Assembly: GCA_964471635.1 (NCBI GenBank)
Contig: CAYYGO010000013.1
Coordinates: 10,594 to 74,593 of the forward strand
DNA from: an uncultured Hyphomicrobium sp.
GTDB lineage: Bacteria; Pseudomonadota; Alphaproteobacteria; Rhizobiales; Hyphomicrobiaceae
Direction of reading: 5' to 3'
Length of the DNA stretch: 64,000 nucleotides
Part shown: positions 18,145 through 27,579 of the stretch, one piece after another
Layout: each line of letters starts with the position of its first letter
Position numbering within the stretch: position 1 is the first letter of the stretch
The notes under the pieces: model-generated
Seen by the model: only the letters and a program-made list of their open reading frames with translations
Told to the model about the DNA's origin: nothing
Databases searched by the model: none
Position numbers and translations under genes: made by a program

Positions 18145-18221
18145 GCCGCCTTAGCTCAGCTGGTTAGAGCGCTAGATTGTGGATCTAGAGGTCCCCCGTT
18201 CGAGCCGGGGAGGCGGTACCA
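18145..18221 (+). tRNA. tRNA-His (anticodon GTG) with encoded CCA, A73, G1:U72 and no G-1
   Basis: Manual cloverleaf: acceptor GCCGCCT/AGGCGGT, D arm GCTC-AGCTGGTT-AGAGC, anticodon arm CTAGA-TTGTGGA-TCTAG, T arm CCCCG-TTCGAGC-CGGGG, then A-CCA. The base at -1 (18144) is T. Confidence 0.92.
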
Positions 18222-18574: not shown

Positions 18575-20263
18575 ATGAGCCAAGGTTCGTTTTGGCGGCG
18601 TGCGTTGATTTTAACCGCTCTGGCCGCGCAGCAAGTTGCAGCCTTGGTCAGTCCAGCTCGTGCTCAGATCGCTGCGCCACCGGCGTTTGCCACGGGTGAC
18701 GGCGACTACGATCCGGCCGAGCTTGCCGGGCTCGCGCTGGTGCCGCTGACGCGCACCTTCAGCCCCGAGGCGGTGAGCCTCAAGGACCGTTTTCCGAAGC
18801 CCGGCAATCAGAAGGACCTTGGCGCCTGCGTCGCCTGGTCGGTCGGCTACGCGGCGCGCAGCTACTACGAGATTGCCACGACCGGGTCCGCCGTCGACGA
18901 CATGAGCCGCATCGTCAGTCCGGCGGCACTGCACGCTCAGCTTCTTGCCGCCGGCGGCACCTGCGAGGCTCCGCAAACGAACATCTACCGGGGATTGCAG
19001 GAGCTTCATTCGCGCGGGGCACCGTCGATCCTGCGCCATCCAGCCTCCTATCCGGATGGGTTCTGCGGTCGTACCGACCGAGCGTCCGCCTCATTCCGCA
19101 TCCGAGATGTGAAATTGGTCGGAAGGCCGTTGCCGCGCTTCGGCAGCGGCAAGCGACAGTCGGGCCTCTCGCCCGATTCGCTCGATCGCATGCGCCTCGA
19201 GCTCGCCGCCGGTCACCCCGTGCTCATCGGAATGCTGGTCGGAAAAAGCTTCATGGGCTGGCCTGCCGGGAGTGTTTATTCCGGCAGCATCCACCAGCGG
19301 CACGGCGACTATCTGCCGGAGCAGGCGGGGCACGCGATGGTGATCGTGGGCTACGACGATTCCCGCCGGGCATTTCAGATCATGAACTCGTGGGGAGAGG
19401 GCTGGGGCGAGGGTGGCTTCATCTGGATCGACTACGACACGATGCTCTCCGATGCCAGGCAGGGTTTTGTGATGAGAACGGATGTCGATCCGCCGCGGCC
19501 GTCGCAGGGTCAATCGGGTGCGCCAAGGGTACAGCTCTCCGGCCTCGAGGCCGAGCACTTGGCCTGCGCCAGCATCACGGTCGAGGGGGGCGCAGCCAAG
19601 GGCTACGTCGCCACGGAGGCAGCCAGGCTCGCTGTGCAGCAGCTCGCGAGCACCAAAGGGCTCAACAGCGAGGTCGTGCTGCGGCCTTGGCCGGTTTGCG
19701 AGGTGCTGCAGACGCTTCGGGCCCCGCTCGCCGCTGCTCGGCGCCCGCGCGTCACGCTGGTCGGCGGCGACAGGACGCTTCGGGTCGGCGAGGCTTTTGC
19801 CATCCAGGTGACGCCACCGACGGTGAGATCATACCTCTATGTGATCTATATCGAGGATGACGGGACGGTGGTCAATCTGCTGCCGAAGCGAGGCGTTCTC
19901 CGGGCTCAGGTCGACATCGATAGCCCACCCCTAATCTTCGGGGACGGCGTCGGCGGCCGGCCGCGGTTCAGGGTCACCCCGCTGCGCTCGGTGGATGCTC
20001 ACGGCAGGGCCCGCGCACCCGGCGATCCCGAGCGCGGCCACGAGGCCATCATCGTCATCGCGGCGCAGGCGCCGATCGAGGAGCTAGAGGACGGCAGTCC
20101 GGTCTATGCGAAGGCCGTCGCTGCCGGAGTAGCGAGCGACGCCGGGCCGCCCGATCGCCTGCTGCTGTCGAAGTTGCGCGACATCACGACCAGAGTAGCC
20201 CAGGGGGCGGAGAAGCCCCGCGAGGTTGCCGCGGACGTGCTCCACCTGCGGATCGTCGACTGA
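18575..20263 (+). CDS. Secreted papain-like (C1 family) cysteine peptidase with C-terminal DUF4384-like domain
   Basis: Signal peptide MSQGSFWRRALILTALAAQQVAALVSPARAQ. The catalytic pattern is NQKDLGACVAWS (Gln-x5-Cys, Cys85 at 18827-18829), GHAMVIVGYDD (His) and NSWGEGWGEGGFIWIDYD (Asn/Trp). The C-terminal LRVGEAFAIQVTPPTVRSYLYVIYIEDDGTVVNLLP resembles DUF4384. Confidence 0.8.
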   Translation: MSQGSFWRRALILTALAAQQVAALVSPARAQIAAPPAFATGDGDYDPAELAGLALVPLTRTFSPEAVSLKDRFPKPGNQKDLGACVAWSVGYAARSYYEIATTGSAVDDMSRIVSPAALHAQLLAAGGTCEAPQTNIYRGLQELHSRGAPSILRHPASYPDGFCGRTDRASASFRIRDVKLVGRPLPRFGSGKRQSGLSPDSLDRMRLELAAGHPVLIGMLVGKSFMGWPAGSVYSGSIHQRHGDYLPEQAGHAMVIVGYDDSRRAFQIMNSWGEGWGEGGFIWIDYDTMLSDARQGFVMRTDVDPPRPSQGQSGAPRVQLSGLEAEHLACASITVEGGAAKGYVATEAARLAVQQLASTKGLNSEVVLRPWPVCEVLQTLRAPLAAARRPRVTLVGGDRTLRVGEAFAIQVTPPTVRSYLYVIYIEDDGTVVNLLPKRGVLRAQVDIDSPPLIFGDGVGGRPRFRVTPLRSVDAHGRARAPGDPERGHEAIIVIAAQAPIEELEDGSPVYAKAVAAGVASDAGPPDRLLLSKLRDITTRVAQGAEKPREVAADVLHLRIVD

Positions 20264-20338
20264 GCGGATCTGCGCGGCAAACATGGTGTGGGGCAGGGTC
20301 GGAGAAGTGCACGACCAGAGTAAGGCTGGAGTGAGACG

Positions 20339-22060
20339 ATGCGAACCATTGTGGTGACGTTGACACGGACACTCGCGTTGACACTCGCCCTGTGTGGGGC
20401 CAATGCGGCGCGTGCCGAGACGCCCGAGGAGATCGTACGCGCCCTCCTGCCCAAGGCGAGCCAGCCGTTGACGCGAAGCTTCAAGCCCCCGGCGCCCGCT
20501 CCTGCCCCAGGCGGATTGTCGCGCAGCTTCCGTCCGGCCGAGCCGGGGGCGCAGGGCCTCACGCGCGGCGTTGCTGTAGAGGGCGGGGATTCGGAGCCAG
20601 AGCCGGAGGGTCCGCCGAAGATCGATCTCTATGTCAACTTCGAGTTCAACAACTCGGCACTGACCCTGAGCGATGCCCGAATCGCACTCGACGCGCTTGG
20701 CAAGGCGCTGACGGATCCGCGCCTTGCCGGCATGCGGTTCGCGATCATCGGGCACACCGATGCGGTCGGGACAGACGCCTATAACATGGACCTCTCGCGT
20801 CGACGTGCCGACTCCGTGCGGCAATATCTCGTTCAGTTCCATCGCGTCGACGCCGGTCGGCTCGAGGCCGAGGGCCGCGGCATGCGCGAACTGAAGATCG
20901 CCACCGACCCGACCAGCAGCATCAATCGCCGCGTCGAGGTCAGAAACCTGATCGGGTCATCGCCGCCGAGGCCGATGCCGGCGCCACCGCCGCAAATTTC
21001 GGCGCCGCCGGTGCCCGCTCCCCGGGTGGCGAGCAACGATCCGGCGCTGCCGCTGCCCGCCTCGCCTCCGCGACCCGTGGTGCGATGGTCGGAGCGAGTG
21101 GATTTCGGGTTGGGTGACCGGCGGCGTGAGCACATCGACCGGTTGCCCGACCGGCCTGCCGCATGGACTGCCGCCCCGGCGCCGAGCGCGCCGCTCGAGA
21201 TTGCGCAGCGGGCTCAAGCATTCACCAGCCGCGGCGAAGCTGCCGCCCGTGCCTTCATTGGCTTGTTCGAGCAGCGCTTCGGCAGGAAGGGCGCCCCGAC
21301 GGACGCCGCCGATGTCGTGGGCCGGGCAGGAGTAGCGCTCGCCGCAGATGCGGGCGTTGCTCAGCTGTCCGTGCTGCAATTGCTCAATCGGCACAACATC
21401 CGCGATGCCGTGGCCGAGGCCCTGGTCATCGCGCAGGCATGGCGAAATCTCGAGCAGAGCTCAGAGCTGGCCGCAGCGGACGAGGGACTGCGCGCTGACA
21501 TTCTCCAGCGGGCATTCGCCTCGGCCGGGCAGACCGTCATGCTGCAGACACGCGCCGTGGCCGAGGCCGCGCGCCTCAAGCGGAGCGCCGAGAGCCTTGT
21601 CACCGCGGTGTCGGATCTGCGCGTCAGAGGTGTGTCGAACGGGGATCTCGACGCGCTGGCCGTTGATCATGGCCGCGCCCTCCTGCAGATGCTCGAGGAG
21701 CAGATTCCGGCGCTTCGCCAGGAAGCGGGCGAAGCCGGTACGGTGGCCAATCTGGAGATGCGTCGCAAGCTGCTCGACTGCGTCGCCATTCGGCTCGATA
21801 CGGTGATCGACGTGGCGGGGCGCGCCGCTCCGCCAGCGAGCGCGCCGGTTCGCGACGTGGCGATGTCGATGCCTCCACTCTTGGTCTCGATCGCGGCGGA
21901 TTCGCTTGTCAACTGCCAGCCGTTATTGTTGCCGTCCGATCCGCAGCGAGGAGCTCCCCCCGTGCCGGTCGACGCCGCGCCGCCGACGAATTTGAGGCCG
22001 CGCAAGGCCGACAACGGCCATGTCCCGCCGGCCCGCTTGGCCGGTCAACCGCTCGAGTAA
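20339..22060 (+). CDS. Secreted OmpA-domain protein with Pro-rich linker and about 320-aa unknown helical C-terminal domain
   Basis: Signal peptide MRTIVVTLTRTLALTLALCGANAARAE. The OmpA_C-like block is VNFEFNNSALTLSDARIALDALGKAL...FAIIGHTDAVGTDAYNMDLSRRRADSVRQYL...NRRVEVRNL. A PPRPMPAPPPQISAPPVPAP linker and an Ala/Leu/Arg-rich domain follow. Confidence 0.8.
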   Translation: MRTIVVTLTRTLALTLALCGANAARAETPEEIVRALLPKASQPLTRSFKPPAPAPAPGGLSRSFRPAEPGAQGLTRGVAVEGGDSEPEPEGPPKIDLYVNFEFNNSALTLSDARIALDALGKALTDPRLAGMRFAIIGHTDAVGTDAYNMDLSRRRADSVRQYLVQFHRVDAGRLEAEGRGMRELKIATDPTSSINRRVEVRNLIGSSPPRPMPAPPPQISAPPVPAPRVASNDPALPLPASPPRPVVRWSERVDFGLGDRRREHIDRLPDRPAAWTAAPAPSAPLEIAQRAQAFTSRGEAAARAFIGLFEQRFGRKGAPTDAADVVGRAGVALAADAGVAQLSVLQLLNRHNIRDAVAEALVIAQAWRNLEQSSELAAADEGLRADILQRAFASAGQTVMLQTRAVAEAARLKRSAESLVTAVSDLRVRGVSNGDLDALAVDHGRALLQMLEEQIPALRQEAGEAGTVANLEMRRKLLDCVAIRLDTVIDVAGRAAPPASAPVRDVAMSMPPLLVSIAADSLVNCQPLLLPSDPQRGAPPVPVDAAPPTNLRPRKADNGHVPPARLAGQPLE

Positions 22061-22085
22061 CTCGGTAGAAGGGGAGCGGCGCGAG

Positions 22086-23753
22086 ATGACGTGGTGGTGG
22101 CCGTGGCTCTTGGGAACGCTGATTCTCGCAGCCTTCGCCGGGCCGGCATTGGCTGCGGCAGAGCCACGCATCGCTCTCGTCATCGCCAATCAGGCCTACG
22201 TCATGCCCGGCGCCGCGCTCACCAACACCCACCAGGACGGCGATCTGATCAAGGCCGCACTCGAGAAGGTCGGCTTCAAGGTCTGGCTCGAGCGCGACAC
22301 ACCCAATGAGGGTCGCATGTTGCAGGCACTGAGCGACCACCAGAAGCGCTTGATCCAGGCTGGCCCCGACGCCGTGGGCTTCATCTACTACACCGGGCAT
22401 GGCGCTGCGGATCGGCCCAATGGCAGCAACTATCTGCTCCCGACCGGCATGCCGGAGTCGGATGCCAGCGTTCTGTCGCTCTATGCGGTGCCTCTCGACA
22501 AGATCACCTCGGCGCTCGCGACGGTCGGCAATCTCAACATCGTCGTCTTCGACGCCTGCCGGAACGTTCCACTGAAGCGGTCCGGGAAAGATTTCGGCTT
22601 CAAGGGTTTCGTTCCGCAACGGGACCAGAGCGGGTTGCTGATCGCCTTCGCGACGGAGGCCGGCAATACGGCCGTCGATCAGAGCCTCTATGCCCGTGCA
22701 CTTGCCGAAGAGCTGCTGAGGCCGGGTCAGGATGCCGGCACAGCATTTCGCGCGGTCGCCCGCCGCGTCAAGGAGGAGACAGGCGGCAGGCAGCATCCCC
22801 AGATCCTCGACGCGCGCACCCGCGATTTCGTGTTCGCCGCCGGGCCGACGGCCCCGGCCGCGGGATCCGCCACGTCGGCCGTTCCCCCGCAGGGCTCGCC
22901 CGTTTCGGCAACGGCTGCGCCGCCACCGCCCCAACCGTCGCCGCAAGCCGCCGCCGAGCCGGGCCCGCCGCGGCCTTCCCGGCAAGGCACCACGCTGCCG
23001 CCTTCGGCTGCCGCCGGGCGCCCCTTGGTGGCCGACCTGCAGCCGCCTTCCGGTACCAACTGTGTTCTTGAGGCGCGACAGGTGGCGACGGACCATGCGG
23101 CGCGCGCCACGTTCCTGCTGTCCTCGTCATGCGGACCGGTGTCCGAGGTCGTCGTCCGCTATCTCGGCGTCAGCCAGCGTCGCCGCGTGACCGGCGGGCG
23201 AGTCACGGTCGATCTGTTCGGCGGTCCGGGACCCGTCTCGTTCGAGCTCGCCAGCGGCCGCTCGGCCGTCGCGGCGGCGCAGGTGCAGCGCGGCGACGAC
23301 GTTCTCAAGGTGGCGCTGGTGTGGAGCGGAGCCGTCAACCTCGACTTGTTCGCTTTGCAGGACGGGGCCCGCATCGGCGAGGCCAGCGCACTTTTTGCCG
23401 ACAACCCCCGCAGTCTGGCCGAGGCACAGACAGGGCAGAGCGGCTTCATCTCGAGCGCCGACGACGGTGCGCTCGAGGGCGACCACGTCGAGGTTTACAC
23501 CTTTCTGAAGACGATCAATCACCGGCGCGGCGCAGTCGAGCTGCGGGTCGATCACCGCTCGCGCGGCGAGGTGGCGACCGGCGACTACTGCGGCTCGGAG
23601 GCGAAGGCTCGCATAGATTTCAAGATCCTGCGCTATGCCGCCGGCAGACTAGAGCAGCACGCGCGCAGCTTTATTCCGCCCGCTCCTTGCGGCTCCCGCC
23701 TCGACGAGCGGTCACGCTATCAGCTTATTCCAAAACCCATCCGGTTCGACTAG
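22086..23753 (+). CDS. Secreted caspase-like (peptidase C14) protein with unknown C-terminal domain
   Basis: Signal peptide MTWWWPWLLGTLILAAFAGPALAAAEP (ATG at 22086 after GGGGAG). The His/Cys dyad motifs are FIYYTGHGAA (His at 22398-22400) and IVVFDACRNVP (Cys at 22557-22559). A Pro-rich linker follows, then about 240 aa of unknown, beta-rich-looking sequence. Confidence 0.85.
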   Translation: MTWWWPWLLGTLILAAFAGPALAAAEPRIALVIANQAYVMPGAALTNTHQDGDLIKAALEKVGFKVWLERDTPNEGRMLQALSDHQKRLIQAGPDAVGFIYYTGHGAADRPNGSNYLLPTGMPESDASVLSLYAVPLDKITSALATVGNLNIVVFDACRNVPLKRSGKDFGFKGFVPQRDQSGLLIAFATEAGNTAVDQSLYARALAEELLRPGQDAGTAFRAVARRVKEETGGRQHPQILDARTRDFVFAAGPTAPAAGSATSAVPPQGSPVSATAAPPPPQPSPQAAAEPGPPRPSRQGTTLPPSAAAGRPLVADLQPPSGTNCVLEARQVATDHAARATFLLSSSCGPVSEVVVRYLGVSQRRRVTGGRVTVDLFGGPGPVSFELASGRSAVAAAQVQRGDDVLKVALVWSGAVNLDLFALQDGARIGEASALFADNPRSLAEAQTGQSGFISSADDGALEGDHVEVYTFLKTINHRRGAVELRVDHRSRGEVATGDYCGSEAKARIDFKILRYAAGRLEQHARSFIPPAPCGSRLDERSRYQLIPKPIRFD

Positions 23754-23772
23754 TCAGGGAGGCCCGTACGCC

Positions 23773-25458
23773 ATGATCTCGGTTCAAAGGCTCGCGCAAG
23801 GCGGCGGCTGTCGTCGCGTCACGCGGGCAACGACCTCCCTCCTGCTCGTGCTAGTCGCGTCGACGACCGCGGCCGCGCAGAGCCGCATCGGCCTCGAAAT
23901 CGATCGGGTGCACGTCATCGACGCCGAGCGAGTGACTCCCACCCCAACCGGCGACAACCTCGACATCGTCCTGACGCACGCGCCCGGTCGCACAATCCGC
24001 CTTCCCATAGAGCGCGTCGCCTGCACTGATCCGAACGCTGCGGGCTGTCCCCAGAAGGTAGCGGAGGTTGCCCAGGCGGTCGCCGCCGGCCGCCTTCCCA
24101 AAGGTGTGGCTGGCTTCGAGATCCACGGTTCGAACACCGTCGGTGCCGAGCTCATGCCGAAGTTGCTCGAAGGGATGTTGTCGGCGCGGCTGGCCGACCC
24201 CGTGACGTCGACCCAGGAGACGAGCGAGGGCAAGCGCCACACGGTCGAGTTCGAGACAGAGGGCGGGGTGCGCCAGAAGGTCGACATTCACGCCTTCGGG
24301 TCCTCGACGGGGTTCAAGGGTCTGCTTGCCGGCACGGCCCAGCTCTGGATGTCGTCGCGACCGGCCAAGGACGGCGAGGTCAAGGAGATCCGCGGCAGCC
24401 GGCAGGTGGAGCTTCTTGCTCCCGAGAGCGAGCACGTCATCGCGCTCGACGGTCTCGCCGTCATCGTCAACAAGAGCAATCCGCTCGGAGCGCTTTCGAT
24501 CAAGGAAATCGCCGACGTCTTCTCAGGCCGCATCAAGGATTGGCAAGACATAAAGGACAGCAATCGCCGCGGGCCGATCAAGGTCTACCGTCGTGACGAC
24601 AACTCCGGAACCGCATCGACGTTCAAGGATCTCGTACTCGAGCCGAACAAGGTCGGCTGGACGCCCGCGGCGGTCCCGCACTCCGACAGCGTCGCGCTCG
24701 AGCAGGCCGTTACGCGCGAGGCGGATGCCATCGGATTCGTCGGCATGGGCTACGTGCAGAACGCCAAGGCGCTGGCGATCAAGGCCGATTGCGGTATGGC
24801 ATTCCGCCCCGACGCGTTCAACGTCAAGACCGAGGAATACCCGCTGTCCCGCCGTCTGTTCGTCTACAGCCTCGGCAAACCGAGCAACCCGCTCGCAACG
24901 GACTTGCTCGAATTCGCGGCGTCCAACGACGGCCAGACATTGATCCGCGAGCAACGATTCGTCGACCTGCTGATGGACTCCAACGGCCTTGACTTCGACA
25001 ACCAGGGAGCGCGGCTGGCCAATATGCTGGTCGCCGGCGCCCAGGATCAGGCAGCGACGACGGCGTTCATCGACGCCGTCCGCTTCGCCCGCCGCGTCTC
25101 GACCACGCTGCGTTTCAGGTCCGACAGCAACGAGCTCGACAACAAGGCGGTTCGCGATCTGACCCAGCTTGCCGACGCCCTCAAGACCGGTCGCATCGAG
25201 GGCAGCAAAGAGTTCCTGCTGATCGGTTTCGCGGACGACCAGGAGGCGGCGCAGGGCAAAGCCAAGGACGTCGCCGAAGGCCGCGCCATCGCAGTTGCCA
25301 AGCTGTTGCAGCAGAAGCTCGACCAGCATCCGAACAAGGCGTTGGAGATCAAGGTGCACAACCAGAACGTCAAGGCGTTCGGCGCGGCAGCGCCAGCGGT
25401 TTGCAACGATGCTCGTGGTCGCACGCTGAACCGGCGTGTCGAAGTGTGGGTTCGTTGA
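23773..25458 (+). CDS. Secreted PstS-like (PBP_like_2) substrate-binding / OmpA-family fusion protein
   Basis: Signal-like N-terminus TSLLLVLVASTTAAAQS. PBP-type segments are IHGSNTVGAELMPKLL, AFGSSTGFKGLLAGTAQLWMSSRP, LDGLAVIVNKSNPL..LSIKEIADVFSGRIKDWQDI and RDDNSGTASTF. The C-terminal OmpA-like block is LRFRSDSNELDNKAVRDLTQLADAL...LIGFADD...GRAIAVAKLL...NRRVEVWVR. GGGAGG lies upstream of the ATG. Confidence 0.8.
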   Translation: MISVQRLAQGGGCRRVTRATTSLLLVLVASTTAAAQSRIGLEIDRVHVIDAERVTPTPTGDNLDIVLTHAPGRTIRLPIERVACTDPNAAGCPQKVAEVAQAVAAGRLPKGVAGFEIHGSNTVGAELMPKLLEGMLSARLADPVTSTQETSEGKRHTVEFETEGGVRQKVDIHAFGSSTGFKGLLAGTAQLWMSSRPAKDGEVKEIRGSRQVELLAPESEHVIALDGLAVIVNKSNPLGALSIKEIADVFSGRIKDWQDIKDSNRRGPIKVYRRDDNSGTASTFKDLVLEPNKVGWTPAAVPHSDSVALEQAVTREADAIGFVGMGYVQNAKALAIKADCGMAFRPDAFNVKTEEYPLSRRLFVYSLGKPSNPLATDLLEFAASNDGQTLIREQRFVDLLMDSNGLDFDNQGARLANMLVAGAQDQAATTAFIDAVRFARRVSTTLRFRSDSNELDNKAVRDLTQLADALKTGRIEGSKEFLLIGFADDQEAAQGKAKDVAEGRAIAVAKLLQQKLDQHPNKALEIKVHNQNVKAFGAAAPAVCNDARGRTLNRRVEVWVR

Positions 25459-25561
25459 TCAAAGGGTGGCCGCGCTGCGCCCGTGGTCGTGACGGATGAG
25501 GCGATCCGTGATAGTCTTAATAGGTGTTTCCGAGAAGATAAATCCATTGAGAGGTCCCGCA

Positions 25562-27007
25562 ATGCTCTTACGTGTCCTGCTCTCAACATTGGCACTTTTC
25601 ACGACGATCGCCGCCGCGCAGGCGGAGCGCCGCGTTGCGCTCGTCATCGGCAACAGCAATTACGCCAACGCAGTGCGACTGCCCAATCCGGAGGGCGACG
25701 CCGAGGCTATGGCCTCCATGCTGCGCGGGAACGGGTTCGAGACCGTGGTGCTCGGAACCAATCTCGGCCGCGACGCCATGATCGAGAAGATCGGGCAGTT
25801 CGCCGAGGTGGCCCGGATCGCCGACACGGCGCTGTTCTTCTACGCCGGCCACGGCATCCAGGTGGATGGGAAGAACTACCTCGTACCGGTGGACGCCGAG
25901 CTCAAGACCGAGTTGCACGCCAAGAACCGCACCATCGACATCGACGCTGTGATGCACGACGCCATGAGCGAGGCCAAGCGCAAGTTGGTGTTGCTGGACG
26001 CGTGCCGCGACAACCCTTTTGCCAAGCAGATCCAGTCGACTCTGCCCAAGACACGAAGCACGGCCGTGACCTCGGGTCTTGCCGAGATGCGCTCGGGCGA
26101 AGGCACACTCATTGCCTTCGCCACGGGCCCCGGCCAGGTCGCGCTCGACGGCGAGGGCACGCACAGCCCGTTCACGCGGGCCTTGCTTGCTCACCTGCCG
26201 ACACCGGGTCTCGAGATCCGCCTGGCGCTATCAAATGTACGCTCGCAGGTGCTGGACGACACCAAGAAGCAGCAGTCGCCGTGGGAGACCACGAACATGG
26301 TCGGCTTCTTCTACATGCAGCCGGGTTCTGCTCCCGTGACCGCAGCAGGTCCCGCGGCGTCGCTGCCTCCCCAAGTCGGATTCGATGCCCGCCAGATGGA
26401 AATGGAAATGTGGAGCTCGATCAAGACTTCGACCAATCCCGCCGAGTACGAGGCCTACCTCAAGTCCTATCCGCAGGGTACATTCGCCGATCTCGCGCGG
26501 ACCCGCATCGCAGCCGCCAAAGGAGGCTCCCAGCCCGGAGGCGCCGGCAACCCTGGCTCGGGCAACGTTGCGACGGGCGAGATCAAGACCGCCGAGGCCA
26601 GCCAGGCGACAGAGGACGCCCTCGGACTTGATCGTCCGAAATGGGCCGACATCCAGAAGCGACTGACCGGGCTCGGTTTCAGCACGCGCGGCGTCGACGG
26701 CGGCATCGGGCCCAACACGCGCAAGGGTATGCAGGCGTGGCAGGGTGCGCGCGGCTATCCTGCGACCGGCTACCTCAATCGTCTGCAGCACGACGCTCTG
26801 CTGCGTGAGGTGATGCCGGTTTCCACCTCGAGTTCCAACGACAGCGACGATACGCCGAAGACGCGCAGCTACGGCCGCAGTGGCGGCAGCAGCAACGGCG
26901 GCAGCGGGGGCGGTGGGGGATCGTCCGCCGGTCAGGCTGGCGAGTTCGTCGGCGGCGTCGCGCGTGGCCTCATCGGTCGCGGAGGTGGCGTGCGTCTGCC
27001 CTTCTGA
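25562..27007 (+). CDS. Secreted caspase-like (peptidase C14) protein with peptidoglycan-binding (PG_binding_1-like) domain and Gly-rich tail
   Basis: Signal peptide MLLRVLLSTLALFTTIAAAQAE. The dyad motifs are LFFYAGHGIQ (His at 25850-25852) and LVLLDACRDNPF (Cys at 26003-26005). The PG-binding-like segment is IQKRLTGLGFSTRGVDGGIGPNTRKGMQAWQGARGYPATGYL. The tail is GGSSNGGSGGGGGSSAG. Confidence 0.85.
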   Translation: MLLRVLLSTLALFTTIAAAQAERRVALVIGNSNYANAVRLPNPEGDAEAMASMLRGNGFETVVLGTNLGRDAMIEKIGQFAEVARIADTALFFYAGHGIQVDGKNYLVPVDAELKTELHAKNRTIDIDAVMHDAMSEAKRKLVLLDACRDNPFAKQIQSTLPKTRSTAVTSGLAEMRSGEGTLIAFATGPGQVALDGEGTHSPFTRALLAHLPTPGLEIRLALSNVRSQVLDDTKKQQSPWETTNMVGFFYMQPGSAPVTAAGPAASLPPQVGFDARQMEMEMWSSIKTSTNPAEYEAYLKSYPQGTFADLARTRIAAAKGGSQPGGAGNPGSGNVATGEIKTAEASQATEDALGLDRPKWADIQKRLTGLGFSTRGVDGGIGPNTRKGMQAWQGARGYPATGYLNRLQHDALLREVMPVSTSSSNDSDDTPKTRSYGRSGGSSNGGSGGGGGSSAGQAGEFVGGVARGLIGRGGGVRLPF

Positions 27008-27043
27008 CGGACGCGGGAGTAGCTGGCAATGGTATTATGGGTC

Positions 27044-27065
27044 GGCGCCGGGTTCGGCCGGCGCC
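27044..27065 (+). terminator. GC-rich hairpin after the last gene of the peptidase cluster (terminator-like, no U tract)
   Basis: GGCGCCGG-GTTCGG-CCGGCGCC lies 37 nt after the stop at 27007. It is followed by C-rich rather than T-rich sequence, so terminator function is uncertain. Confidence 0.35.
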
Positions 27066-27579
27066 CCCCCCTCTTCGCGATCAGTGCGCGTGGCGTGCGT
27101 CGCCTCGGTGCCGAAGTGGCTATTTGACGGGCGCCCCCGCGAGCAGCGGTTTCCGAGATCAAGCGGAAGCCACGGACTGCGATCCGCATGCGGATGACGC
27201 AGTTGGTGCATACATAACTATATGATATAAAACAATTTTGTGTTCTTGGTTCTGGGCGCCCCAGACGGGAGTGCAGCACCCGTGTTCGGGGGGTGGGGCA
27301 CTCGGAGTTCGTTTGCAACCGCCAAGCAGCCCAGCTTCACAATTCTTTACCATCCCGGCTGACGCCGCTTTACACATTTCCTGTTCAATCTGTGGTCAAG
27401 GGGAACCGGCACGATCCGCGTCCCGTTTACCAAAGAGCCCGTTGGCCGACTATGCGGGCCGACCGGCGAATGTGTACGCTGGCGGCAAGTGCCCGCCATC
27501 GCTCGGACATGGTTGCCGCCGATGGTTGGCAACGCGTTTCCGAGCGGTAACGTTCGCTCCGAGGACAGGAAGGTATAGG

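Follow-up and report, generated by a model that had tools for sequence, protein, structure and literature searches.

A five-gene cluster of an uncultured Hyphomicrobium joins two recurrent modules of predicted envelope proteins through a caspase-like protein with a new C-terminal domain

Introduction

Alphaproteobacteria are, to our knowledge, rich in caspase homologues, and almost none of the bacterial ones that we know of has a known role; among the periplasmic homologues we know of no member with a known function. The question addressed here is what two such proteins do in a 64,000-nucleotide (nt) stretch of DNA from an uncultured Hyphomicrobium sp. (the whole of which is referred to as the window, and whose positions serve as coordinates below), where a conserved cluster of five genes, g1 to g5, encodes two predicted exported caspase homologues alongside a papain-like peptidase, a ligand-binding module and wall anchors. 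A first-pass annotation of this DNA had proposed a dedicated envelope system and not a scattering of housekeeping genes. We find that the gene set does recur, that it is a composite of two separable modules and not an indivisible operon, and that the caspase of g3 is replaced by a TIR domain in a sister cluster. Our preferred reading, to which we give somewhat less than even weight, is that of one conserved modular envelope system whose products would be jointly periplasmic and peptidoglycan-bound, and in which a wall-tethered sensor would control a proximity-activated effector.

The locus offers testable hypotheses for the roles of exported orthocaspases, of proteins annotated as "phosphate ABC transporter substrate-binding/OmpA family", and of the domain family here called X. 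Should the sensor-effector reading be true, caspase/TIR signalling or immunity would be extended from the cytoplasm to the cell envelope.

Results

The genes of the cluster are as follows.

18575-20263, + strand: g1, 562 amino acids (aa); papain-like (C1) peptidase, predicted exported; Cys pair in the middle region, DUF4384-like domain at the C-terminus
20339-22060, + strand: g2, 573 aa; long OmpA-family protein, predicted exported; OmpA-like domain joined by a Pro-rich linker to a C-terminal region predicted to be helical
22086-23753, + strand: g3, 555 aa; caspase-like (C14) peptidase, predicted exported, with a Pro/Ala-rich linker and the X domain
23773-25458, + strand: g4, 561 aa; PstS-OmpA protein, predicted exported; mini-domain at the N-terminus, then a PstS-type fold and an OmpA-like anchor
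25562-27007, + strand: g5, 481 aa; caspase-like peptidase, predicted exported, with a C-terminal PG_binding_1 domain

The set as a whole is found a second time. Three metagenome contigs (L103, L104 and L105), which come from three samples, have a G+C content of 71% and belong to an organism other than that of the window, carry orthologues of all five window proteins at 32-56% identity. These are encoded by six co-directional genes with gaps of 9, -1, 5, 54 and 20 nt, given here for L103.

Gene 1: caspase, 298 aa, 56% identical to g5 aa 3-254
Gene 2: PG_binding_1 protein, 197 aa, 42% identical to g5 aa 300-413
Gene 3: C1 + DUF4384 protein, 556 aa, 32% identical to g1 over 544 aa
Gene 4: long OmpA protein, 531 aa, 34% identical to g2 aa 29-484
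Gene 5: TIR, membrane helix and X, 473 aa, 32% identical to g3 aa 269-542
Gene 6: PstS-OmpA protein, 574 aa, 42% identical to g4

The gene order is a cyclic permutation of that in the window (g5-g1-g2-g3'-g4, where g3' is the counterpart of g3), and the flanks, TrpB-like upstream and CobT, Nudix and EamA downstream, are unrelated to those of the window. As the set is re-clustered between unrelated flanks and subsets of it recur elsewhere, the cluster is not a chance grouping. The first-pass annotation had named a lack of co-occurrence in related genomes as grounds for rejecting its reading, and the recurrence seen here supports that reading instead. A neighbourhood of unrelated secreted-protein genes could be argued from the 103-nt gap between g4 and g5, which could hold a promoter, and from the fact that every domain family involved is individually common in Alphaproteobacteria; given the re-clustering of all five orthologues in L103-L105, the repeated recurrence of both sub-modules and the fusions that link domain families (P0196 and P0217, described below), we find such an accident hardly credible.

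In g3' the caspase that precedes X in the window is replaced by a cytoplasmic TIR domain, which retains its Glu-containing motif, and a membrane helix. The caspase of g3 is exchangeable for a cytoplasmic TIR domain, and this exchange on X favours a sensor-effector logic over a simple protease cascade.

The sister cluster also bears on g5. A statement that g5 is not conserved, made from its absence downstream of g4 in two further contigs (L005 and L006), was withdrawn, because the g5 orthologue of L103 precedes g1 and L005 and L006 end there, which renders the absence uninformative. The g5 orthologue itself is cut by an in-frame TAA (L103 787-2286; also L104 and L105), with the 197-aa piece lacking a signal peptide; the split is identical in the three contigs from different samples, and could represent a truncation, a site of read-through or a population-wide pseudogene.

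Three of the five gene types also keep company on their own. Proteins of the g1, g2 and g5 types, i.e. a DUF4384 protein, an OmpA protein and a caspase, constitute what we term Module A, which recurs without X or PstS-OmpA. A plasmid collection was searched by tblastn for these three types; subsets of the five genes of the cluster are found on many plasmids as well as on chromosomes. All three members of the triad occur together in Tateyamaria omphalii pDOK1-4-5 (DUF4384, OmpA and caspase proteins 36%, 40% and 39% identical to g1, g2 and g5), in Phaeobacter sp. G2 and Rhodobacteraceae SC52 (an ExbB-ExbD-ExbD-DUF4384 operon, then caspase and OmpA genes), and in Ralstonia sp. RRA.1 (a caspase with a DUF3108-like part, a C1 + DUF4384 protein and an OmpA protein, with a caspase-Sel1 gene nearby). 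A g5-type caspase gene adjoins a g2-type OmpA gene on six Bradyrhizobium plasmids and one Neorhizobium plasmid, and lies ~1.4 kb from one on a Mesorhizobium ciceri plasmid, while on at least eight Leisingera plasmids a DUF4384 gene is found less than 2 kb from a g5-type caspase gene. Single proteins that fuse caspase to OmpA (P0196) and caspase to DUF4384 (P0217) also exist.

On four roseobacter-group plasmids (L096-L099), DUF4384 proteins of 475-610 aa end ExbB-ExbD-ExbD operons, a slot that in ExbB-ExbD operons is usually taken by TonB-like proteins. In three of the four, the neighbours of the operon are caspase/OmpA genes, the tssABC genes of type VI secretion, or both. These arrangements hint that DUF4384 proteins may be coupled to a proton-driven envelope motor.

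The position of Module A beside type VI secretion genes on some roseobacter plasmids, and its presence on symbiosis-type plasmids, might suggest that the proteases are offensive factors exported to act on competitors or a host, with the anchors providing transient retention only; the signal-peptide-like segments on all products would suit such a function. We nevertheless consider it very improbable, as three peptidoglycan-binding domains argue for retention in the periplasm of the producer, neither the window nor L103 holds secretion-system or immunity-like genes, and the variant with TIR, membrane helix and X is a predicted inner-membrane protein.

The remaining two genes are connected by the C-terminal part of g3.

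23067-23750, + strand: X domain of g3, aa 328-555; modelled as a tandem beta-sandwich; invariant residues three Cys and one Trp, plus an LDLH motif

X is a new domain family. An exhaustive HMMER search of 1.84 billion representatives yielded 530 clusters at E<=1e-3 and 195 at E<=1e-10, which share a C-terminal signature of ~220 aa with three Cys, one Trp and LDLH invariant or nearly so, and X stands at the C-terminus of the protein in all 150 of the 150 matches listed. The first-pass annotation had recognised nothing in this part of g3, in keeping with the present searches: no Pfam match was obtained even at E<=10, and a profile search of the PDB gave no meaningful sequence match. An AlphaFold2 model computed from the family alignment is confident (predicted local distance difference test, pLDDT, ~90-98) and consists of two beta-sandwich halves, with which Foldseek found only generic immunoglobulin (Ig)-like/beta-sandwich matches, with template modelling (TM) scores below 0.3, among PDB and viral models. 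An assignment to DUF2135, based on a resemblance of the LDLH motif, was dropped, with no tool result in its support. A word-indexed search whose query was the g3 C-terminus together with its Pro/Ala-rich linker yielded no match and missed even the query itself, while HMMER with the trimmed domain worked; among search patterns for metagenomes, a 15-sequence alignment proved too diverse and a five-sequence alignment led to one short contig only.

The portion ahead of X varies. Among 95 X proteins of at least 330 aa, the N-terminal Pfam partner is TPR in six, caspase in two, TIR_2 in two, Big_9 in two and DnaJ in one, and the rest have none; among 141 X proteins that start with Met, 68 have an N-terminal signal-like segment only and 18 an internal membrane helix before X. 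Two of the proteins, P0262 and P0275 (the latter being the g3 counterpart of L103-L105), have the order TIR_2, membrane helix, X. Such variable partners, together with the signal segments and membrane helices before X, mark X as a predicted extracytoplasmic domain that bears variable N-terminal partners.

The counterpart of X is g4, whose domains are the following.

23878-24057, + strand: N-terminal mini-domain, ~aa 36-95; CxxxxxxxC pair (C84, C92); putative docking site for X
24115-24972, + strand: PstS-like domain, ~aa 115-400
25114-25455, + strand: OmpA-like domain, aa 448-561

A scan of species-representative genomes for the g4 family gave 80 loci, none of them from the source genome, with a best match of 38% identity; the g4 proteins of contigs L005 and L006 are closer, at 64% and 56%. 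Throughout the 80 loci and these two contigs, the only window protein that recurs beside PstS-OmpA is the C-terminal part of g3. As detected by hidden Markov model (HMM), an X gene is the direct neighbour of PstS-OmpA in 18 other loci, 16 times upstream on the same strand and twice downstream; these loci span Hyphomicrobiaceae, Rhodomicrobium, Pontivivens and unclassified Proteobacteria. The X-bearing neighbours range from 248 to 1079 aa, and their N-terminal part is absent, TPR, Big_9 or, in L005, caspase. Presence of the mini-domain and of an adjacent X are associated (both in 15 cases, mini-domain only in five, X only in three, neither in 56; Fisher p = 2e-9). X is the key conserved element of g3 and the partner of g4, and the two together (X of g3 with the PstS-OmpA protein g4) form Module B. 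Short PstS-OmpA proteins of ~440-460 aa (L009, L020, L025 and other Pseudomonas/Marinobacter loci) have neither the mini-domain nor an X partner; their neighbours include secreted Exo_endo_phos, DUF3301 and inositol monophosphatase-family proteins, GGDEF-EAL proteins and hybrid histidine kinases.

The X domain had no match in the plasmid collection, and none of the PstS-OmpA plasmid matches listed lies on a triad-carrying plasmid. Each module recurs alone, and the five-gene cluster is therefore a union of two separable, independently recurrent envelope modules, with g3 (caspase + X) as the physical link between them.

The assignment of a PstS-type fold to g4 in the first-pass annotation stands as regards the fold itself, since PBP_like_2 scores 100.6 bits (Pfam scores were judged against curated gathering cut-offs) and solved PstS structures in the PDB are matched to E 5e-21. 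It does not extend to the curated NCBIfam PstS families, whose cut-offs g4 misses (TIGR02136, 152.4 against 206.6 bits; TIGR00975, 31.5 against 205). The motifs GSNT, GSS, SSR, DG and SGT of the putative phosphate site are invariant in a 28-member PstS-OmpA alignment and align with those of solved PstS. The OmpA-like domain of g4 scores 30.6 bits (cut-off 27.2) and keeps NRRVEVW, its GFAD...GRA segment being diverged. In three relatives (P0050, P0053 and P0060) PstS-OmpA is fused through a membrane helix to an N-terminal Ser/Thr kinase and thus forms a kinase ectodomain, which fits a role as a sensor.

A PstS-type fold with invariant phosphate-site motifs, together with the secreted Exo_endo_phos and inositol monophosphatase-family genes beside some short relatives, invites an explanation in terms of phosphate-linked physiology, whereby the task of PstS-OmpA would be to retain or detect phosphate at the wall, with the proteases as scavenging or regulatory enzymes induced by phosphate starvation. 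No pstC, pstA or pstB gene was found in the window neighbourhood or L103, and pstCAB, phoU, phoBR and phosphatase genes are likewise missing from the cluster and its immediate surroundings, here and in L103. A wall-anchored binding protein would furthermore be unable to shuttle to a transporter, Module A recurs without a PstS protein, and the TIR variant would be left unexplained. As such, this explanation seems improbable to us.

The domains of the other four genes are listed here, apart from X.

18752-19474, + strand: peptidase C1 domain of g1, ~aa 60-300
19757-20104, + strand: DUF4384-like domain of g1, ~aa 395-510
20639-20920, + strand: OmpA-like domain of g2, aa 101-194
21194-21928, + strand: helical C-terminal region of g2, aa 286-530; secondary structure from an AlphaFold2 model
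22167-22829, + strand: caspase domain of g3, aa 28-248
25628-26299, + strand: caspase domain of g5, aa 23-246
26636-26800, + strand: PG_binding_1 domain of g5, aa 359-413

The catalytic motifs reported by the first-pass annotation are intact in all three peptidases. In g1, the papain-type set is Q79/C85/H253/N271, and these residues are kept in two distant orthologues, those of L103 (32% identity over 544 aa) and Ralstonia (27% over 537 aa). Peptidase_C1 (PF00112) scores 34.8 bits in g1 against a cut-off of 20.7 in an alignment that covers only the C-terminal half of the model, and the Ralstonia orthologue aligns with model positions 14-204. The DUF4384-like call for g1 fared less evenly: the Pfam score (PF14326) is 18.9 bits, under the cut-off of 27, but the call is backed by homologues, as the g1 C-terminus is 36% identical to a Tateyamaria protein annotated as DUF4384 and the Ralstonia orthologue reaches 24.7 bits; weak DUF4384 matches are seen in the L103 orthologue as well. 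The dyads of the caspases are H105 (in YTGHG) and C158 (in FDACR, codon at 22557) in g3, and H97 (in YAGHG) and C148 (in LDACR, codon at 26003) in g5, with Peptidase_C14 (PF00656) at 81.4 and 132.9 bits, respectively, against a cut-off of 21.4.

Proteins most similar to the g3 caspase domain (59-65% identity; P0142-P0180) are mostly fusions to FGE-sulfatase domains and not to X, and close relatives P0165, P0181 and P0141 are solitary or tandem caspases without this gene context. Caspase-TIR_2 fusions (P0215, P0216 and P0221) occur among the more distant relatives. The locus L087, which encodes the 599-aa tandem double caspase P0141, has ParA-like, DnaB-like, Fic/DNA-ligase and guanylate-cyclase/AAA_16/TPR neighbours; these surroundings of a close relative of the g3 caspase have the look of a mobile element or a defence locus.

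The three wall-associating domains named by the first-pass annotation all score above their Pfam thresholds, namely OmpA (PF00691) in g2 (64.1 bits) and g4, and PG_binding_1 (PF01471) in g5 (34.5 bits, cut-off 23), and binding of g2, g4 and g5 to peptidoglycan is predicted from these matches. The canonical peptidoglycan-binding residues GHTD...NRRVE are kept across the alignment of the g2-type OmpA subfamily. The g5 protein is 48-49% identical, over 83% of its length, to the Bradyrhizobium plasmid caspases that adjoin g2-type OmpA genes. Conservation of g2 (34% over 477 aa to the 531-aa OmpA protein of L103) is weak in the C-terminal half (28% over 167 aa, E 8e-6), where a Cys is shared (LLDC in g2, LLKC in L103). 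This half is predicted to be all-helical by a single-sequence AlphaFold2 model, of which, at a mean pLDDT of 43.7, only the secondary structure is usable. A 342-aa open reading frame (ORF) behind the Ralstonia OmpA gene, considered as a homologue of the g2 C-terminus, is not homologous, and g2 as the query of a metagenome scan found no relative. Ahead of the OmpA domain, g2-type proteins have a semi-conserved N-terminal segment (I..AL.PKPK..TRS/TRG; 20339-20640 in the window), whose conserved Arg residues could be protease sites, as judged from the alignment.

With regard to the layout, the first-pass gene calls were borne out by the ORF list and by independent calls on Logan contigs of the same organism, which give the identical five genes: all are on the + strand, with spacers of 75, 25, 19 and 103 nt, and each start codon has a purine-rich GGAG/GAGG-like motif, of the Shine-Dalgarno kind that had been described, 6-13 nt upstream. 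No minus-strand gene appears in the independent calls, and the long minus-strand ORFs are rejected as Arg/Gly-rich antisense frames typical of DNA of 65-69% G+C. Signal-peptide-like starts were likewise found on all five products, each with an N-terminal hydrophobic segment and an AxA-type site (best 12-residue Kyte-Doolittle mean 1.6-2.2); export of all five is predicted from these segments, which were identified by inspection. An in-frame ATG at 22020 would lengthen g3 by 22 residues (22020-22085; MSRRPAWPVNRSSNSVEGERRE), overlapping the end of g2 by 41 nt and giving the signal segment a positively charged n-region, and a Joint Genome Institute (JGI) gene call, P0134 (577 aa), adopts this start. 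A longer ORF for g5 opens at 25496. Neither a terminator-like site in any intergenic gap nor a sigma-70-like promoter was found within the cluster; g5 may be a separate transcription unit, given that its orthologue stands at the opposite end of the cluster in L103. On the Logan contigs a 32-aa ORF follows g5 directly (27029-27127, + strand; L001 8837-8935), has no homology evidence, and is probably not a real gene.

The cluster is flanked by housekeeping genes, with a tRNA-His gene and a histidine kinase gene upstream and resistance-nodulation-division (RND) efflux genes downstream. The tRNA-His gene (anticodon GTG; 18145-18221, + strand) lies ~350 nt upstream of g1. tRNA genes are common insertion sites of islands; around the cluster, neither an att-like repeat of the tRNA-His 3' end nor an integrase was found, and so we make no claim of a genomic island.

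Discussion

How the two modules might operate together can be sketched from their parts. Module A would supply a wall-anchored set of cysteine proteases (g1, the anchor g2, and g5), and Module B a sensor pair of X and PstS-OmpA. In the proposed scheme g4 would be held at the wall by its OmpA domain, its PstS cleft would take a phosphate-containing ligand, and X would dock on g4 through the N-terminal mini-domain of the latter. X would in turn bear a swappable effector, that is, a periplasmic caspase in the window and, in the sister system, a TIR domain on the cytoplasmic side of a membrane helix. X might then cluster, and so activate the fused effector, once ligand occupancy changes or the partner proteases have made their cut, with an output of regulated proteolysis of envelope targets in the former case and NAD-directed TIR activity in the latter. 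Activation by induced proximity is well established for caspases and for TIR domains alike, and this shared property would explain their interchange on X.

Several points weigh against this scheme. The complete gene set is known from only two lineages, L005 and L006 being truncated contigs, and most pairs of X and PstS-OmpA come without any protease or TIR, so that the pair may serve some separate purpose that has nothing to do with controlling an effector. Contact between X and g4 is suggested by co-occurrence alone, and since g4 falls under the NCBIfam PstS cut-offs its ligand need not be free phosphate. Furthermore, the caspase would be on the same side of the membrane as X and the TIR domain on the opposite side, which makes one shared activation mechanism an assumption. 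The window is no recognisable defence island, its flanks being those of a housekeeping region; matches to PADLOC-DB 2.0 are at the level of domains only (ZorB-type OmpA, caspase, TIR/ThsB-like; E 1e-4 to 1e-14), and no defence-system architecture in that database is matched by the cluster.

The main rival is an assignment to envelope maintenance or remodelling, in which outer-membrane proteins, or proteins linked to peptidoglycan, would be processed or turned over by the wall-tethered peptidases as cells grow, divide, enter stationary phase or live in symbiosis, PstS-OmpA and X would be structural or regulatory accessories, and no function in conflict or cell death would be involved. All parts are predicted to be periplasmic and three have peptidoglycan-binding domains, large rhizobial and roseobacter replicons and chromids, on which housekeeping-like genes are numerous, commonly carry Module A, and the roseobacter DUF4384 protein that ends the ExbB-ExbD-ExbD operon places the module in a context of envelope energy transduction; the housekeeping flanks of the window and the many X + PstS-OmpA pairs without an effector domain point the same way. 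A cytoplasmic TIR domain on X in the same system is, however, hard to square with a purely proteolytic role, the distribution is patchy and cassette-like with flanks that differ per lineage, and the genes closest to the g3 caspase stand alone and have sensor-like fusions of other kinds, FGE-sulfatase among them. On balance we hold maintenance to be somewhat unlikely.

For the sensor-effector system that we prefer, we think a response to envelope stress or an invader more likely than routine housekeeping. The grounds are indirect: a variant with TIR exists, the distribution is patchy and resembles that of a cassette, and the g3 caspase is akin to proteins that fuse caspase and FGE-sulfatase. 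A more specific form of it would be a new class of envelope surveillance, with a peptidoglycan-tethered co-receptor that has the PstS cleft and, together with the Ig-like X, would sense a periplasmic phosphate-bearing signal (products of wall or membrane damage, or incoming foreign material) and switch a caspase or TIR effector in concert with the papain/caspase set. We rate this form as unlikely; if true, it would amount to a bacterial counterpart of protease-primed signalling by receptors built of Ig-like ectodomain, membrane helix and TIR.

Comparison with known systems

Full-text literature searches returned no description of the five-gene set. Its parts do have known relatives. Like other prokaryotic caspase homologues (MEROPS C14, with PG_binding_1, FGE-sulfatase, Sel1 and TPR partners), g3 and g5 have the p20-type fold signature, the His/Cys dyad and N-terminal signal-like helices, and the combination of caspase and peptidoglycan-binding domain seen in g5 is among the architectures listed in a 2012 survey (Asplund-Samuelsson et al., PMC3501461). 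In contrast to what such surveys cover, the caspase-X architecture of g3 lies outside any Pfam model, and where they treat single proteins, the caspases here stand among several genes, for a papain-like peptidase, OmpA anchors and PstS-OmpA. With PstS of the PstSCAB transporter, g4 shares the fold, and its conserved motifs are the counterparts of the phosphate-binding residues and so a putative phosphate site; unlike PstS, it has no pstCAB neighbours, is fused to an OmpA-like wall anchor and a Cys-pair mini-domain, and has an X-domain protein as its partner where PstS has a transporter, or forms a kinase ectodomain in some relatives.

The NTP (nucleoside triphosphate)-dependent conflict systems of Kaur, Burroughs, Iyer and Aravind (2020, PMC7159879) are built on NTPases, employ caspase, TIR and FGS effectors and include peptidoglycan-binding domains. 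They resemble the present system in the interchange of caspase and TIR on a constant partner, in their peptidoglycan-associating domains (OmpA and Sel1, found there in membrane-proximal variants) and in their patchy distribution. They differ in that neither the window nor the L103 proteins include an NTPase (STAND, MoxR or GTPase) or a vWA domain, that the parts here would be mostly periplasmic, and that the constant domain is the new X; PstS has 0 occurrences in that paper. Zorya (ZorAB) shares the OmpA/MotB-type peptidoglycan-binding anchor, the OmpA domains of g2 and g4 matching ZorB models weakly, and the principle that events at the envelope are sensed and passed on to an effector, but the cluster has no MotA/ZorA-like channel and no ZorC/D-type effector, and an ExbB/ExbD motor is found only beside Module A on roseobacter plasmids.

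By way of analogy only, the sister system may be set beside the animal Toll/IL-1 (interleukin-1) receptor, with its Ig-like ectodomain, single membrane helix and cytoplasmic TIR domain, and it is encoded together with predicted extracytoplasmic proteases that include a caspase homologue; unlike the receptor, it has an N-terminal TIR domain (a reversed topology) and no detectable homology of the ectodomain, and the window is without TIR. Taken together, the individual domains of the cluster are known from elsewhere, and what is new is the X domain family, an undescribed sensor pair, and a multi-component caspase/TIR system with wall-binding parts.

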